Part shown: piece by piece, positions 34,301 to 64,000 of the stretch
How positions within the stretch are numbered: the first letter of the stretch is position 1
Layout of the letters: each line of letters opens with the position of its first letter
Assembly (NCBI GenBank): GCA_050250895.1
Contig: JBFWNU010000012.1
Span: 32,001-96,000 of the forward strand
Direction: 5' to 3'
DNA length: 64,000 bases
DNA from: Vulcanimicrobiota bacterium
GTDB lineage: Bacteria; Vulcanimicrobiota; Xenobia; Xenobiales; JADMJV01
The notes under the pieces: generated by a model
Database searches by the model: none
Told to the model about the DNA's origin: nothing
Seen by the model: the letters and a program-made list of their open reading frames with translations, nothing else
Program-made: the position numbers and the translations under genes

Positions 34301-34898
34301 CAACTCGATCACCGATGAGGTGCTCGAGCATCTACCCAAGCACCGCAATCAAACCCCCGAAGATGTCCGCAAGGCTCTGACCGAGGTTTCGGCCAAATAC
34401 AACTTCCCCCTCGAAGACCTCAATGTCTTCGGCAAGATCAAGACCTCTGAACTCGAGACCCAGGTGGCGAGCTACGTCGAAGACAAGGTGACTTCGGCGA
34501 TGGGTGTGTTCGAAGAGCACGGGCTCAAGCTCGAGGATGGAGCCCGAGTCGGCATGTTGACCATTCTCGACACCAACTGGACCGACCATCTCGAAATCAT
34601 GGAAGCGCTCAAGGATGGTATCCAGTGGGAGTCCATCGCCGGGCGCAAACCCGAGGATGCCTTCATCGAGCGAGGCTTCGAGGTCTTCAAAGAGATGATT
34701 ACCAATATCGAGCGCAGTTGCACCTCCCAACTGGTTTCTGAACTGTTGGCCGGCGCCGATATGATCAAAAAGGGTGTCATCAAGGTGCCACCCGTCCAGC
34801 GGCCGGCACCCCAGTCGGGCCTCACCCAGACCTGGGCGCGCGACGACGACGGCAAGATGCGAGCCGAGTGGAAGGCCGAGGGAGCCGCCACCCATTAG
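31314..34898 (+). CDS. secA: Atypical SecA-family translocase ATPase (probable accessory paralog)
   Basis: EMATGEGKT, DEVD..LIDEARTPLIIS, ATNMAGRG, RIDDQLIGRSARQG; long N-extension, PPXD insertion, no C-terminal CPCGSG Zn motif. Confidence 0.85.
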   Translation: MGQFVSPLGAQLKTPPVAKANGTPRREDSDQALPVESFEASQPQPQARPAETARVAPEPEPRATETFLERPTTPAQPPNTPTTIPVFEQPVSEEVQAVTGSGGESLAEVAKRVAAEVDRAEAAKASQPTAATTSTELPKAESAKRAELASNIRTHRSVGSALLHFVTGDPLKVYKKELDAINKAEAMAAKLTTPAEFQAKTAEFKQRLANGETLEDLRVEAYAVAREACKQATGMRPYDCQIVGGLATDSGRIAEMATGEGKTLMAVMPLYLNALAGKGAHLVTVNDTLAARDAEWMGPAYKLLGVSVGTVLEGMTPEDKRAGYNADITYTTDRTIGFDYLRDRTVRNPAQRVQREPFFALIDEVDEVLIDEARTPLIISAQGEPAADEYRTFSEIVDHLTPGEDFYVDRKQHSAWLSETGLDNVENELALRQAQATYNQAVQEHGESSPQATEAKQWIDNATRMRDAIKAEGAAYKVHQDYLEKKPGWFKRIFNFVTGKQAEGYDKATEKELKASYEAAKDAHEELKGSFPEYQLYSEDNAGRVRFLDASLKARALFTDEDDYIVENGEVKIVDENKGRTSDGRRYNDGLHQALEAREGVEIKPEQRAVASITYPNLFKKYPRLAGMSGTAATSAGEFEKLYDLSVVQIPTNLQFETNPADPTAAPRHNRIDEADVIYPSLKAKFDGVVQEAVKNFEEGVPILIGTLSVKANKYVAYQLVKAGVPKDAIQVLNAESVRGDKQAENEIIEKAGISGMVTVATNMAGRGANIKPDLTNYKKIAMAAIDAANGQSKPVIVHMKNAKEAQRLAEWLDNRASYAVADQPQDVLPGPGQVLIRAGHEGPVPEGATLLDYHDYPTGGLYVIGTERANSRRIDDQLIGRSARQGAPGRSKFFLSLQDDLLRVFGGENLSPLLDLFGDSSKGVQSNLADKLVAQAQSRVESMHFEVRDNTTKYDEVLNKQRDTFYAYRDSILGPAPGQEGEQADVKGLMLSYAVNSITDEVLEHLPKHRNQTPEDVRKALTEVSAKYNFPLEDLNVFGKIKTSELETQVASYVEDKVTSAMGVFEEHGLKLEDGARVGMLTILDTNWTDHLEIMEALKDGIQWESIAGRKPEDAFIERGFEVFKEMITNIERSCTSQLVSELLAGADMIKKGVIKVPPVQRPAPQSGLTQTWARDDDGKMRAEWKAEGAATH

Positions 34899-35301
34899 CA
34901 TCGTTTCCTCCGAGCAGGAGGGGTTCGCCGAGATCAACGTCACGCCCCTGACTGACGTGTTGTTGGTCCTGCTGATCATCTTCTTGATCACGGCCGGAGG
35001 ATTGACCGCGCCCCGCCATGGGGTGAAGGTACCGGAAGTGGTCACCCGCACCCAGGCCGAGAAGAGCATGGTGATCGTCGACATCACGGCCGATGGTCGT
35101 ATCTTTCTCGGCTCCGACGAACTCTCGCCGCGACTGCTCGAAGGGCGCCTGACCCTCGAGCAAGAGTTGCGCCAGACCGATCGGGTGGTCATTAACGCCG
35201 ATCAGGACACGGCCTACGCGGTGGTGTCCGAGGTCTTGCGGGCCGCGGATCGGGTCGGTTTGCACAAGATCTCGCTAGCCACCAGGCTGGTCAAGCCATG
35301 A
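34894..35301 (+). CDS. exbD: ExbD/TolR-family protein (probable ATT start)
   Basis: INVTPLTDVLLVLLIIF, INAD..Y..V; no nearby ATG/GTG/TTG in frame; SD GAGGGAG. Confidence 0.8.
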   Translation: MSIVSSEQEGFAEINVTPLTDVLLVLLIIFLITAGGLTAPRHGVKVPEVVTRTQAEKSMVIVDITADGRIFLGSDELSPRLLEGRLTLEQELRQTDRVVINADQDTAYAVVSEVLRAADRVGLHKISLATRLVKP

Positions 35302-59657: not shown

Positions 59658-59781
59658 GGGGGAGAAGCTGGAACTCGATTCAAAGTCTGAGACCGGCCCA
59701 ACCACCTGTTGGGTGCTCGGCGGCAACGTTAGAGCCTTATCGGGTACAGACAACAATGGTGTGTTTGGAGGTAGGTTACAA

Positions 59782-59988
59782 ATGAAAAACCTTATTTCTT
59801 TGGTTTTGGGCGGGCTGCTTCTCGGCGGTCTGATGTTCGGTTGCGGTGGCAGTACGCCCCCCGCCGACAACAACAGCCCCGCAGTTAGCACTCCCGCCGA
59901 AGGGGGCGTCGAGATGTCCCCTGCTCCTGAGGGCGGCGAGACTCCCGCTATGGAAGAAACCCCGATGTCCGAGGGAGATTCCCATTAG
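59782..59988 (+). CDS. Small acidic lipoprotein
   Basis: SD GGAGGT; lipobox MFGC; low-complexity tail. Confidence 0.75.
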   Translation: MKNLISLVLGGLLLGGLMFGCGGSTPPADNNSPAVSTPAEGGVEMSPAPEGGETPAMEETPMSEGDSH

Positions 59989-60700
59989 GGCGACTCTCAT
60001 CGCCGGAGTCCTGGCGGCAGGCCTGTGCCTGCTGCCAGGCTGCAATCCGCAGGGGCAGTCGGCTCAGTCAACGCCCACTCCGGTTTCTTCTCCCGTTCGG
60101 GTGTCGGTGGAGGATCAGCCCAACTCTGTGGGCCTGACCCCGTTGCCGGGCAAGTCTGCTCCCGAGGTGACCGAGAAGAAAGTGGTCAAGATGACCACCG
60201 ATGCAGGCGAGCTGACCATCGAGGTCTATCCTCAGGCGGCCCCCAACGCGGCCAAGCGCTTTATAGAACTGGTCGAGGCAGGCTTTTACGACAATACCCC
60301 GATCTTCCGGGTGGTCCGTGCACCTCAGCCGTTCGTGGCCCAGTTCGGGATCAACTGGCGCGACGACTTTCCCCAGTGGCAAGAAAAGAATTTTGATGAC
60401 GATCCGACCTATTTCAAGCTGGATCGGGGCACCCTGGCTTTCGCCAAAGCCGGGCCCAACACCAACAGTACTCAAGTGTTCATCAACTTTGGCGACAACA
60501 GCAATCTGGCTTCGCCCGAATACAACTTTACCACCTTCGGCAGGGTGGTCGAGGGTCTTGACGTCATCGACAAATTCGTGCCCACCGGTTCCGAGAGCAT
60601 GGAACTCGAGCAGGGCCCGCTTTGGGAAGATGGCGAGAAGTACCTCAAGAGCATCGAAGAGAAGCCGACTATGATCACTAAAGCCGAGGTCGTCCAGTAG
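59984..60700 (+). CDS. Cyclophilin-type peptidyl-prolyl isomerase lipoprotein (probable ATT start)
   Basis: GFYD..FRV..FVAQFG, TQVFIN, FG.VVEG; lipobox LPGC 20 residues from ATT. Confidence 0.85.
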   Translation: MRATLIAGVLAAGLCLLPGCNPQGQSAQSTPTPVSSPVRVSVEDQPNSVGLTPLPGKSAPEVTEKKVVKMTTDAGELTIEVYPQAAPNAAKRFIELVEAGFYDNTPIFRVVRAPQPFVAQFGINWRDDFPQWQEKNFDDDPTYFKLDRGTLAFAKAGPNTNSTQVFINFGDNSNLASPEYNFTTFGRVVEGLDVIDKFVPTGSESMELEQGPLWEDGEKYLKSIEEKPTMITKAEVVQ

Positions 60701-61749
60701 CTACTCTGGTTCGCGTCGAGTGCGGCTTTCCGCCTCACTATTACTCCCAAGAAGAGCTTATCGACGCCCTCAAGGAATTCTGGGCCGAGAAGGTCTTCAA
60801 TCTAGAACGCCTCGAGCAGTTCCATCGCAACGTGTTGGTGGAGGGCCGCCATCTGGCTCTCGCCCGCGAGCAATACCGCGAACTGAAAGGCTTTGGCGAC
60901 CGCAACACCGCCTGGATCGAGGTGGCCACCGAGCTGGCTACCGAGGTGGTGGGCAGGTTGCTAGAACGGTCTGGCTGTTCACCCGAACAGCTGGGCCTTT
61001 TTGCTTTCACGACCGTGACCGGTCTGGCCGTGCCCTCGCTCGAGGCTCGTTTGATGAACCGGCTGCCTTTACCCCGCAGCCTGCGGCGCATGCCGCTGTT
61101 TGGCCTGGGTTGTCTGGCTGGGGCGGCGGGGGTAGCCCGGGCGGCCGATTCGTTGGCTGCCTATCCTGACAAGGCGGCCATCATGCTGGCCGTCGAGCTG
61201 TGCTCGTTGACCCTGCAGGCCGAGGATTTTTCGGTGGCCAACCTGGTGGCCAGCGGGCTCTTCGGCGATGGGGCAGCGGCCGCTTTGCTGGTGGGCGATG
61301 AACATCCCCTGGCCGGGCAGGGGCCGAGAGTGCTGGCTACAGCCTCCGATTTCTATCCTGACAGCGAGCGGGTCATGGGTTGGGATATCACCGACAATGG
61401 CTTCAAGATCGTGTTGGCCAACAACGTGCCCGACTATGCCCGTCACCAGGTGGCCGATGGAGTGCGTGCCTTTTTGGGCGAGCAAGGGTTGGCCATCGAG
61501 GACATCGGCTGGTGGATCACCCATCCCGGCGGGCCCAAGGTGATGTCTTCGTTGTGCGAGGGGTTGGGTTTGCCCGACGAAGCCCTCGAGCTATCACGCC
61601 AGAGCCTGGCTCGGGTGGGCAATATGTCGTCTGCTTCGGTGTTGTTCATTCTCGACGAGGTGATGCGTCAGGCCAAACCCGGAGACTATGGGCTCTTGAT
61701 GGCGATGGGTCCGGCCTTCTGCTCGGAGCTGGTCTTGCTGCGATGGTGA
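60697..61749 (+). CDS. Type III polyketide synthase (start probably GTA 60697 or CTG 60706)
   Basis: Triad GLGC, HPGG, GNMSS; conserved FPPHYYSQ N-terminus upstream of the first canonical start. Confidence 0.9.
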   Translation, partial: VATLVRVECGFPPHYYSQEELIDALKEFWAEKVFNLERLEQFHRNVLVEGRHLALAREQYRELKGFGDRNTAWIEVATELATEVVGRLLERSGCSPEQLGLFAFTTVTGLAVPSLEARLMNRLPLPRSLRRMPLFGLGCLAGAAGVARAADSLAAYPDKAAIMLAVELCSLTLQAEDFSVANLVASGLFGDGAAAALLVGDEHPLAGQGPRVLATASDFYPDSERVMGWDITDNGFKIVLANNVPDYARHQVADGVRAFLGEQGLAIEDIGWWITHPGGPKVMSSLCEGLGLPDEALELSRQSLARVGNMSSASVLFILDEVMRQAKPGDYGLLMAMGPAFCSELVLLRW

Positions 61750-62279
61750 CTCCGGCGGTCTTCTCGGTGCTGGTGGTGGCCATGGCTTGTCAGCGGTTGT
61801 GGGAGCTATCGCGAAGCGCCCGCAACGAGGCGACTCTGCGAGCCCGGGGGGGCTACGAAGTGGGGGGCGGCCATTTCTGGGTGATGCGTCTGGTCCATAC
61901 CGGCTGGTTGCTCGGTTGCCTGCTCGAGGTCTGGTGGGCTCCCGTCTCCTGGCCGGGCCTGGCGGTGCTGGGGTGGCTGGGGCTGGTGCTGGGTCAGAGC
62001 CTTCGCTATGCGGCCATTCGTCAGCTGGGTTCACGCTGGACCGTCCGAGCCATGGTGGTGCCCGACGAGAGAGTTGTATCCGGAGGGGTCTTTCGCTATC
62101 TACGCCACCCCAACTATCTTGGGGTGGTCATCGAACTGGCCGGCTTTCCCTTGATCGGGGGCTGTGTCAGGACGGCCCTAGTTTTTTCCTTGGCTAATGC
62201 CCTCCTCTTGAAGGTGCGCATCGCGGCCGAGGAAAAGGCTCTTCGAGAGGAAACAGATTATGGCCAGGCCTTCGGCTGA
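61743..62279 (+). CDS. Isoprenylcysteine-carboxyl-methyltransferase family (BpsB/SrsB-like)
   Basis: LG.RW.VR, G.FRYLRHPNY, RI.AEE.AL. Confidence 0.88.
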   Translation: MVTPAVFSVLVVAMACQRLWELSRSARNEATLRARGGYEVGGGHFWVMRLVHTGWLLGCLLEVWWAPVSWPGLAVLGWLGLVLGQSLRYAAIRQLGSRWTVRAMVVPDERVVSGGVFRYLRHPNYLGVVIELAGFPLIGGCVRTALVFSLANALLLKVRIAAEEKALREETDYGQAFG

Positions 62280-62520
62280 AGTTGGTGAGCTGATCACCGA
62301 GATTCTGACCCACGAGTGTGGGGTCAAAAAGGCTATCACAGACGACAGCCTGTTGGCTGAGGAGCTGGGTCTTGACTCGGTCGGGATGCTAGCCCTGGCC
62401 CTGGGCCTCGAAAACCACTACCAGATGAAGCTGGGTGAAGACGCTCAGAACCCGCCTCGCTCGGTGGGCGAACTGCGCCGGCTGGTGGAGAGTCGATTGG
62501 AGCAGCGTGAAGTTTCTTGA
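62260..62520 (+). CDS. Acyl carrier protein
   Basis: LGLDSV phosphopantetheine site. Confidence 0.88.
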   Translation: MARPSAEVGELITEILTHECGVKKAITDDSLLAEELGLDSVGMLALALGLENHYQMKLGEDAQNPPRSVGELRRLVESRLEQREVS

Positions 62521-64000
62521 GGCCCTGCTCGGGGCGGGGGAGCGAGCGGATCGCTTTGTCGAGTTTCAATCGGGGCCTGAAATCAACCGCGTGTCGATGG
62601 CCGAACTGGTGGCCTCAGCCCGGCGCCGCGCTGGAGGGTTACTCGCGTCCGGAGTCGAGCCCGCCCAGGTGGTGGCCGTGGCCGGAACCACCGGTCGAGA
62701 CACGGTGGAGACCATTCTGAGCGTGTGGCTGGCCGGAGCGGTGCCCACCGTCTTGCCGCTGCCGGCTCGCATGGGTCGGATGGAAGAGTACGCTCGCTCG
62801 ACCCAGGCCAAGCTGGCGGCCTGTCGGGCCAGCCTGTTGATCGGCGAAGAGGGCTTTGTCGAGTCGCAGCAGCAGGCTTTGAATGTGCCCTGTCGTTCGT
62901 TCGTCCAGTTGGAGGACGGCCCGGAAGTGGCCGAAACGACCGGACTCGGCTTGATCCAGTTCTCGAGCGGCACCACTCGCGAACCTTCACCGGTGGCTCT
63001 CGAGCGAGAGGCGATGCTGGCCAACGTGCGGGCCATGCTGGGCCGATTTCCCGGCGACCCCAGCCAGCATAGCTGCGTCTCGTGGCTGCCTCTGTATCAC
63101 GACATGGGATTCATTGGCTGCCTCCTTTCGGCCCTGGTGGCTCAGGGCAACCTCACCTTGCTGCGCCCCGAAGAGTTCGTGGCCCGGCCGATCGCCTGGC
63201 TCGAAGCCCTGACTCGCACCCGGGCTAGCACCAGCCCTGCCCCCAATTTCGCCCTGGCTTTGTGTTGCGAGCGAGTGCGCGACAAGCAGATGGGCAAGCT
63301 CGACCTGTCGCACTGGGGTGTGGCTTTGATCGGCGCCGAGCCGGTGCAGCGGGGAACGCTCGAGCTGTTCGCCGAGAAGTTTGGCGCGGTGGGTTTTCGG
63401 CGCCAGGCCTTGACACCGGTCTATGGTCTAGCCGAAGGAACCCTGGGAGTGACCTTTAGCCCTATCGACCTCGAACCACGGTTTTTCGACGTGGCTGCCG
63501 ATCGGCTGGCCGAGACCGGAGAGATCGTGGCTGGCAACCACTCCATCGCCAACCTGGGTCGCCCCCTGGAGGGGGTCAGGGTGGAGATCCGCGACCGGCA
63601 GGGCCAGGTCCTGGGCGAAAACCGGTTGGGACGGGTCTGGGTGGAGAGTCCGGGGCTCATGCAGGGGTATCTCTATCAACCCGAGCGCACCGCCGAGGTG
63701 CTGGTGGACGGCTGGCTCGATACCGGCGATCTAGGCTTTTTGCGCGAGGGTGAGCTTTATCTCTATGGCCGCGCCAAGGACATTCTGCTGATCCAGGGGC
63801 GCAACCACGACCCGGTCATGGTCGAGCAGGCCCTGGCCGGGGTGGATGGCCTGCGGGCCAGCCGGGTGGCGGCCTTTTCGGTGCCCGATGCCGAAAAAGG
63901 CAGCGAGGCCCTGGTGGTGGTGGCCGAACGGCAGATGGGCAAACGCAGCCACGAACCGGCCGAGCTGGCCCGCCAGGCCCGGGCCGCCGTCATTGCCGCC
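62507..64000 (+). CDS. Fatty acyl-AMP ligase (FAAL), truncated by the window end
   Basis: Manual translation: QFSSGTT, SWLPLYHDMG, PNFA, YGLAE, WLDTGDLG, GRAKD. Confidence 0.88.
   Translation, partial: MKFLEALLGAGERADRFVEFQSGPEINRVSMAELVASARRRAGGLLASGVEPAQVVAVAGTTGRDTVETILSVWLAGAVPTVLPLPARMGRMEEYARSTQAKLAACRASLLIGEEGFVESQQQALNVPCRSFVQLEDGPEVAETTGLGLIQFSSGTTREPSPVALEREAMLANVRAMLGRFPGDPSQHSCVSWLPLYHDMGFIGCLLSALVAQGNLTLLRPEEFVARPIAWLEALTRTRASTSPAPNFALALCCERVRDKQMGKLDLSHWGVALIGAEPVQRGTLELFAEKFGAVGFRRQALTPVYGLAEGTLGVTFSPIDLEPRFFDVAADRLAETGEIVAGNHSIANLGRPLEGVRVEIRDRQGQVLGENRLGRVWVESPGLMQGYLYQPERTAEVLVDGWLDTGDLGFLREGELYLYGRAKDILLIQGRNHDPVMVEQALAGVDGLRASRVAAFSVPDAEKGSEALVVVAERQMGKRSHEPAELARQARAAVIAA

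Follow-up and report, generated by a model that had tools for sequence, protein, structure and literature searches.

We analysed a stretch of 64,000 nucleotides (nt) of Vulcanimicrobiota DNA (the window, G000:C12:32001-96000) from genome G000, which has 9.50 Mb and 62.9% G+C. It carries a type III polyketide synthase (PKS) gene whose frame has no canonical start codon (ATG, GTG or TTG) where the conserved protein begins. The comparisons described below indicate that this gene is very probably translated from a non-canonical codon within 60697-60708, and a non-canonical start at the stop codon of the preceding cyclophilin gene is well supported. Within this interval, we give about an even chance to GTA 60697-60699 being the start, used by re-initiation after the cyclophilin stop. 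The elements of the junction are listed here with their window positions.

59984..60700, plus strand: cyclophilin-type peptidyl-prolyl isomerase, a lipoprotein (Pfam Pro_isomerase, 4.7e-27), with stop TAG 60698-60700
60686..60690, plus strand: Shine-Dalgarno-like GAGGT in the sequence, 6 nt before GTA
60697..60699, plus strand: GTA, the favoured initiation codon, in a GTAG overlap with the cyclophilin stop
60706..60708, plus strand: CTG, the alternative initiation codon, 5 nt past the cyclophilin stop
60697..61749, plus strand: type III PKS gene, 350 codons counted from GTA, with stop TGA 61747-61749 (Pfam Chal_sti_synt_N and _C)
60832..60834, plus strand: GTG, the first canonical start of the PKS frame, 45 codons into the conserved protein (open reading frame list and alignments)

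The PKS is read in the −1 frame with respect to the cyclophilin gene, and its frame opens after TAA 60679-60681, reading AGC CGA GGT CGT CCA GTA GCT ACT CTG GTT and onward. ATG, GTG and TTG are absent between this TAA and GTG 60832, 50 codons past it. The GTAG at 60697-60700 is a co-directional 4-nt stop/start overlap (NTRR shared), which is also found in G001, the sister species. The overlapping codon is GTA, and the overlap is therefore not of the canonical ATGA, GTGA or TTGA form. A first-pass annotation had already placed the in-frame TAA, the first GTG, the GTA with its GAGGT, the CTG and the GTAG overlap, and all of its coordinates were right.

The protein is a member of the chalcone synthase superfamily by its domains, with 53.1 bits against PF00195 and 78.3 bits against PF02797 (cut-off 27 each). 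The Pfam chalcone/stilbene synthase N domain aligns from residue 5 of the stop-to-stop open reading frame (ORF), ahead of GTG 60832. The best solved relative is Pks11 of M. tuberculosis (PDB 4jao, E 1.1e-93), a type III PKS of alpha-pyrone synthesis. Residue 8 of Pks11 aligns with query residue 13, and its Met1 extrapolates, without a gap, onto the GTA residue. The two proteins are of nearly equal length (350 amino acids from GTA and 353 in Pks11), with N-termini that coincide by extrapolation. The catalytic Cys is kept, with GLGC aligned to GLGC of Pks11 and to GLGS of its Cys-to-Ser variant chain, and HPGGPKV and GN(M/L)SSAS are identical to Pks11 in the alignment. We take His and Asn to be the catalytic partners of this Cys in type III PKSs.

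Comparison with the sister species suggests the same extent of the coding region. The G001 PKS protein is 73% identical to that of G000, and over the whole gene the nonsynonymous (pN) and synonymous (pS) differences are 0.18 and 0.70, with saturated synonymous sites. In the 44 codons from GTA to GTG 60832, pN is 0.162 and pS is 0.754, compared with 0.188 and 0.699 in the rest of the gene. Purifying selection upstream of GTG 60832 is as strong as in the remainder of the PKS gene. Since pN is low and pS saturated in these first 44 codons, we conclude that the N-terminal PKS codons are translated. Selection, domain and structure alignments together make a start at 60832, gene decay and an untranslated leader all unlikely, and they bear out the earlier claim that the conserved N-terminus precedes GTG 60832.

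PKS homologous loci were drawn from 40 relatives, from species-representative genomes and from metagenome contigs. A total of 174 loci had an alignable N-terminus, and codon positions were counted back from the His of PPHYY as anchor. Only L001 of G000 and the G001 locus (seen twice, as L002 and L031) lack every canonical codon in the stretch from the upstream stop to the anchor, which agrees with the first-pass proposal of a PKS without a canonical start. The nearest canonical start at or before −6 is at −12 in 99 loci, −7 in 24, −13 in 20 and −15 in 8, and in the remaining loci at −14 and −10 (5 each), −11 and −20 (3 each), −16 (2), −18 and −9 (1 each). The G001 junction reads the same CCA GTA GCT ACT CTG GTT as G000 and keeps the GTAG overlap. 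Around it, the 22-nt stretch GTCCAGTAGCTACTCTGGTTCG is identical in the two genomes despite their saturated synonymous sites. The same junction in an independent assembly makes a sequencing error unlikely. As judged from these alignments, the absence of a canonical start in the PKS is lineage-specific and old. The only closer PKS relative in the genome scan was that of G001 (72%), and the metagenome scan gave no PKS homologue above 58% identity. Database records of the protein are cut short at this end: a 95% identical protein (P0004) starts inside the PKS gene at a contig edge, and the G001 PKS protein begins at an internal TTG, 24 codons downstream of GTA.

The position of GTA 60697 corresponds to an ancestral start in many relatives. 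It is codon −13, and ATG, GTG or TTG lies exactly there in 8 of 14 relatives' loci (L003-L016). These −13 starts directly follow or overlap the cyclophilin stop, as TAG GTG, TAG ATG, TAA GTG or TAGTG (G013). Among 15 relatives' PKS loci, 13 have a cyclophilin ORF within 1.5 kb upstream. The closest homologues outside the genus, P0006 and P0007 (65% and 64% identical), start with MASIVRTGTGFPPHYY and MVTIAATRTGFPENFY. In both, the initial M (M-A-S-I-V-R and M-V-T-I) is at −13 and aligns with the GTA residue of VATLVRVECGFPPHYY. Two relatives have GTA GTG at the junction, and today's GTA GCT could derive from GTA GTG by clean loss of the GTG codon. Relatives with canonical starts carry ACG where G000 has the GAG of GAGGT, and G001 has GGAGGT. 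From the end of the GAGGT it is 6 nt to GTA and 15 nt to CTG 60706. The motif matches the 16S 3' end, which is the standard CCTCC.

These observations are consistent with a mechanism in which a ribosome terminating at the cyclophilin UAG (60698-60700) would stay on the mRNA. Pairing of the GAGGU seven bases upstream with the 16S anti-Shine-Dalgarno would help to hold it there. It could then re-initiate with fMet-tRNA on the overlapping GUA, where position 1 would form a G-U wobble and position 2 a U-A pair, with position 3 mismatched, in a geometry that equals that of an ATGA overlap. The expected output would be a small, fixed fraction of PKS per cyclophilin. Re-initiation is the mechanism that we propose, and low PKS output, as in the earlier suggestion of expression tuned downward, may follow from it. 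No plus-strand promoter-like site was found at the cyclophilin/PKS junction, and the junction region folds with a stability that does not exceed that of shuffled sequences (z = 0.79).

A close known arrangement is the 4-nt ATGA or GTGA stop/start overlap, reported to be translated by termination-reinitiation (PMC6728339; PMC10666635). The PKS junction shares with it the single strand, start bases 2-3 that serve as stop bases 1-2, a Shine-Dalgarno-like motif inside the upstream gene and a conserved gene pair. It differs in that the stop is TAG, so that the overlapping GTA cannot be canonical, and in that the coupling is putative here. Re-initiation is described as requiring formylated initiator tRNA and as being lowered by IF3 overproduction (PMC2268962).

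Several points weigh against GTA as the start. The nearest canonical start is at −12, not −13, in 99 of the 174 loci, and at −10 in 5. With mismatches to AUG at positions 1 and 3, GUA is not near-cognate, whereas CTG 60706 would qualify. In E. coli, GUA is reported in the weakest class, that of the 57 remaining codons, with 0.1-1% or 0.01-0.2% of AUG depending on the construct (10.1101/063800). No natural bacterial GUA start was found in the literature by title or abstract. In print, we met a bacterial GUA start only in recJ, in a defective mutant that IF3 mutations rescue (PMC2268962). GTA also lacks Shine-Dalgarno enrichment genome-wide, with a motif at 25 of 480 GTA codons upstream of first canonical starts (5.2%) compared with a background of 6.5%, while ATC (71/873) and CTG (117/1470) show a slight excess over this background. 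In the panE-like gene described below, GTA is not kept in G001, which has GTG at −17.

The CTG 60706-60708 at codon −10 lies 3 codons downstream of GTA and 5 nt past the stop, and it is conserved in G001. In this alternative, the ribosome would slide 5 nt past the UAG and produce a protein beginning Met-Val-Arg-Val-Glu, three residues shorter. This is a real possibility, which we place clearly below an even chance. CUG is among the four near-cognate starts reported for E. coli, at 1-2% of AUG (10.1101/063800). CTG is also the start candidate in most of the other non-canonical cases of G000, including five CTGA junctions. In the aminotransferase gene, a methyltransferase-like gene and selO, a candidate CTG follows GGAGG, GAGGG or GGAGA at a distance of 4-6 nt. 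The five loci with their nearest canonical start at −10 and our codon model, which sets the PKS coding onset at CTG 60706, point the same way. However, the only Shine-Dalgarno-like motif ends 15 nt upstream of this CTG, beyond the usual range, and the codon is outside the stop-overlap geometry common to all five CTGA cases. The GCT ACT between GTA and CTG is identical in both species and matches the Ala-Ser/Thr after Met in the closest homologue. Among Leu codons, CTG is in any case the most frequent (48.6%), and GTA is fixed by the Gln and the TAG of the cyclophilin; as both codons are largely forced by other constraints, their conservation does not discriminate between them. Our preference for GTA over CTG is therefore a reasoned one and not a demonstration, since sequence alone cannot separate them.

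The other explanations are much less probable. A start at GTG 60832, without the first 45 residues, would agree with the choice that gene callers make, as in the G001 record with its internal TTG. We consider it very improbable, because the skipped codons show the purifying selection given above, the skipped residues align with the Pfam N domain and with Pks11 from residue 8 onward, and the other 171 of 174 loci have a canonical start ahead of the anchor, near −12 or −13. An assembly or sequencing error could conceal a canonical start such as GTGA or ATGA, given that the G000 genome was assembled from a metagenome. The identical 22 nt in G001 leave little room for this, and strain contigs of about 95% identity bridge 59700-60932 with indels, among the differences listed, only at 59949-59955. 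These contigs come from four runs (two RNA libraries and two DNA runs) among a set with small shares of 0.06-0.15, and the RNA-library contigs across the junction do not prove transcription. A hidden canonical start is hence just as hard to credit. Gene decay often begins with the loss of a start codon, and the −1 frame could alternatively mean that the PKS exists only as a frameshift product fused to the cyclophilin. We regard decay or fusion as improbable. The ORF is intact in two species with saturated synonymous sites and a pN/pS well below 1, and the catalytic Cys position is conserved in comparison with Pks11 and its variant chain. No slippery X XXY YYZ heptamer precedes the cyclophilin stop (GTC GTC CAG TAG), as a frameshift would need. 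A fusion would be exported, since the cyclophilin is a lipoprotein that carries a signal peptide, and relatives have separate cyclophilin and PKS genes.

We inspected the translation apparatus of G000 for special features and rejected this explanation: G000 carries one initiator tRNA of the standard type and one tRNA-Val(UAC), its 16S anti-Shine-Dalgarno is also standard, and nothing among them is unusual. The number of IF3_C matches is 2 in G000 and 3 in G001, compared with 1 in 34 of 39 other relatives, although the count in G001 is uncertain owing to about 6% contamination. The two G000 paralogues, L282 (G000:C5) and L283 (G000:C4), each have an IF3_C domain.

To search for similar genes, a simple codon model was trained on G000 and 6562 non-overlapping ORFs were kept. 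The raw screen gave 209 candidates, mostly antisense shadow ORFs. After overlap filtering, a coding-like stretch of at least 15 codons preceded the first canonical start in 84 of the 6562 ORFs, many of them false. The screen recovered its controls, the prfB +1 frameshift and the selenocysteine TGA in a formate dehydrogenase-like gene. These two ORFs are on G000:C1 (prfB on the reverse strand at 2884675-2885841 and the fdhA-like ORF at 345614-348310, in script coordinates), and a tRNA-Sec is present. Within the window, the screen flagged only the PKS. Twenty of the candidates were examined with Pfam, and in seven genes the domain begins before the first canonical start.

panE-like gene: domain from residue 47, first canonical start at residue 73 (Pfam ApbA, 26 residues earlier)
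dnaG: domain from residue 10, first canonical start at residue 26 (Pfam)
phosphopantetheinyl transferase gene: domain from residue 53, first canonical start at residue 89 (Pfam)
selO: domain precedes the first canonical start (Pfam)
Lhr helicase gene: domain from residue 28, first canonical start at residue 45 (Pfam)
Lon N-domain protein gene: domain from residue 15, first canonical start at residue 44 (Pfam)
YbaK-type editing protein gene: domain from residue 23, first canonical start at residue 36 (Pfam)

For nine of the 20 candidates, the domains lent no support to a start farther upstream. Seven of these had no match near the N-terminus, an abhydrolase gene was compatible with its canonical start, and a lactonase-like gene was ambiguous. 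In two genes on G000:C1, of the Uma2 family (L208) and of DUF2461 (L210), the Pfam match sets in at the first residues of the ORF but covers only the C-terminal part of the profile, and both genes look truncated or frameshifted.

We also took a census of 1312 junctions in which the upstream stop is overlapped in the ATGA geometry, looking for those with no canonical start from −15 to +14 codons and a coding-like sequence beyond. Eleven of them were of this kind: CTGA 5/171, GTAG 2/49, ATAG 1/29 and CTAG 3/109, with two of the three CTAG cases looking like shadow ORFs. None was found among the CTAA, GTAA, TTAA, TTAG and ATAA junctions. The second GTAG junction links efp (by Pfam) to the panE-like gene at L191:1039-1041 on the minus strand (G000:C3). 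There, efp ends ...GEYLRRV-TAG, and the first canonical start of the panE-like gene is 30 codons downstream of the GTA. Of 18 relatives, 8 carry ATG, GTG or TTG at the position of this GTA (−11), 8 at −10 and 1 at −9. The five CTGA junctions precede genes for a class III aminotransferase, a phosphopantetheinyl transferase, an NrtR-like regulator, an Lhr helicase and a membrane protein, and they are located as follows.

L194, L195, L196, L198 and G000:C3 + 376333: CTGA junctions whose downstream gene has no nearby canonical start

Five genomes of two genera (G000, G001, G002, G010 and G004) keep the phosphopantetheinyl transferase CTG, which lies in or next to a TGA, and the aminotransferase CTGA is also present in G018. 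Such stop-overlapping non-canonical starts, for example the phosphopantetheinyl transferase CTG, are by this comparison stable in the lineage. In dnaG (L192:613-618, plus strand, G000:C1), ATC ATC follows GGGAGG by 3-6 nt with no canonical start before the zinc-ribbon domain, and the second ATC, 6 nt after GGGAGG, aligns with ATG, GTG or TTG in 10 of 10 same-family relatives. In selO, hflX and the methyltransferase-like gene, the non-canonical candidate does not sit at an upstream stop, so that re-initiation cannot account for every case.

The first-pass annotation had proposed relaxed start-codon selection. This is supported in part: non-canonical stop overlaps recur in G000 (five CTGA, two GTAG, one ATAG and the exbD ATTAG described below), while the genome-wide Shine-Dalgarno comparison showed no general relaxation. 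The non-canonical starts are a dozen or so exceptions and not a changed rule.

The same proposal had counted the PKS as the third such case in 64 kb, and this count holds with the PKS, the cyclophilin gene and, most likely as the remaining one, an exbD-like gene. The features concerned and the other genes around the PKS are given here.

34894..35301, plus strand: exbD/tolR-like gene, probable start ATT 34894 overlapping the secA stop TAG 34896-34898 (ATTAG)
59713..59988, plus strand: small lipoprotein-like ORF (ORF list), with stop TAG 59986-59988 overlapping ATT 59984 as ATTAG
61743..62279, plus strand: ICMT-family methyltransferase gene (Pfam ICMT, 7.1e-26), with ATG 61743 / GTG 61746 overlapping the PKS stop (ATGGTGA)
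62435..64000, plus strand: AMP-binding (acyl-AMP ligase-like) gene (Pfam AMP-binding, 6.3e-39), continuing beyond the window edge

The exbD-like ATT 34894 was singled out by a census of the one-base-overlap geometry. Pfam ExbD starts at ORF residue 53 and the ATT is residue 44, so that the domain begins 9 residues after it. The next canonical start falls inside the ExbD domain, and a gene beginning at the only canonical codon farther upstream would share about 125 nt with secA. In the G001 homologue, the start ATG aligns with this ATT. ATT overlaps (ATTGA, ATTAG and ATTAA) were earlier proposed to explain rare 5-nt overlaps (PMC10666635).

The cyclophilin gene is the weakest of the three cases. 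Its start region reads ATT CCC ATT AGG after GAGGGAG 59971-59977, and its signal peptide aligns at ATT 59978/59984 with the GTG start of G001 (GTG-NKRLLVV..LLPGC). The only canonical start in frame, GTG 59846, would overlap the upstream lipoprotein-like ORF by 143 nt. The cyclophilin start is probably ATT 59984 (or 59978). The earlier view that the PKS is the second case in a row in this operon is plausible on the alignment with G001 but weaker than the rest, as the cyclophilin frame does carry GTG 59846. The lipoprotein-like ORF has a GLMFGC motif resembling a lipobox, as seen by eye in its translation, and no Pfam match.

On the other side of the PKS, the ICMT-family methyltransferase and the AMP-binding enzyme recall alkylresorcinol/alkylpyrone operons, and some close homologues carry that name in their source records; a similar role here would be by analogy. 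A terminator-like hairpin of 13 pairs followed by TTTTTGCTTT lies at 60968-61007 on the plus strand, inside the PKS coding region and about 270 nt past the start.

An AUU start is known from infC. AUU, AUC, AUA and CUG are the near-cognate starts reported for E. coli (10.1101/063800). The junction cases of G000 resemble them in that a weak codon would give low output, and G000 has ATC (dnaG), ATT (exbD) and CTG (several genes) at ancestral start positions. GUA differs in being two positions from AUG and one from GUG, outside the near-cognate class of that report. A further close precedent comes from E. coli, where IF3 mutations are reported to suppress a recJ mutant with a GUA initiation codon (Haggerty and Lovett 1997, via PMC2268962). 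There, too, GUA replaces a GUG start, in a gene described as having no Shine-Dalgarno and as seemingly coupled to an upstream ORF. However, the recJ allele is a laboratory loss-of-function allele needing altered IF3, whereas the PKS GTA is natural and common to two species. We tentatively propose that GUA may be a genuine natural initiation codon at GUAG overlaps, read by the ordinary initiator tRNA in at least two genes (PKS and panE-like). The lineage may tolerate third-position mismatches more widely (dnaG ATC, exbD and cyclophilin ATT, one ATA in ATAG), maybe in connection with the extra IF3 paralogues. We hold this wider proposal at rather less than an even chance, and the link of the IF3 paralogues to start-codon choice is speculative.

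The finding matters for annotation, as gene finders that assume ATG, GTG or TTG cut 25 to 45 residues off the conserved PKS. The same loss would hit the panE-like gene, dnaG, the phosphopantetheinyl transferase, the Lhr helicase and others in G000. The locus is also a clean natural test of start-codon identity in re-initiation, with two candidates 9 nt apart, each of which can be changed silently. TAG is the commonest stop in G000 (TAG 1661, TGA 1572 and TAA 888 of 4121 confidently coding ORFs sampled), which is unusual for bacteria. As TAG cannot form a canonical 4-nt overlap, canonical overlaps are impossible for many gene pairs of this genome. If GUA works at GUAG overlaps, tight coupling would be open to genes ending in TAG, and the set of natural bacterial start codons would gain one member.

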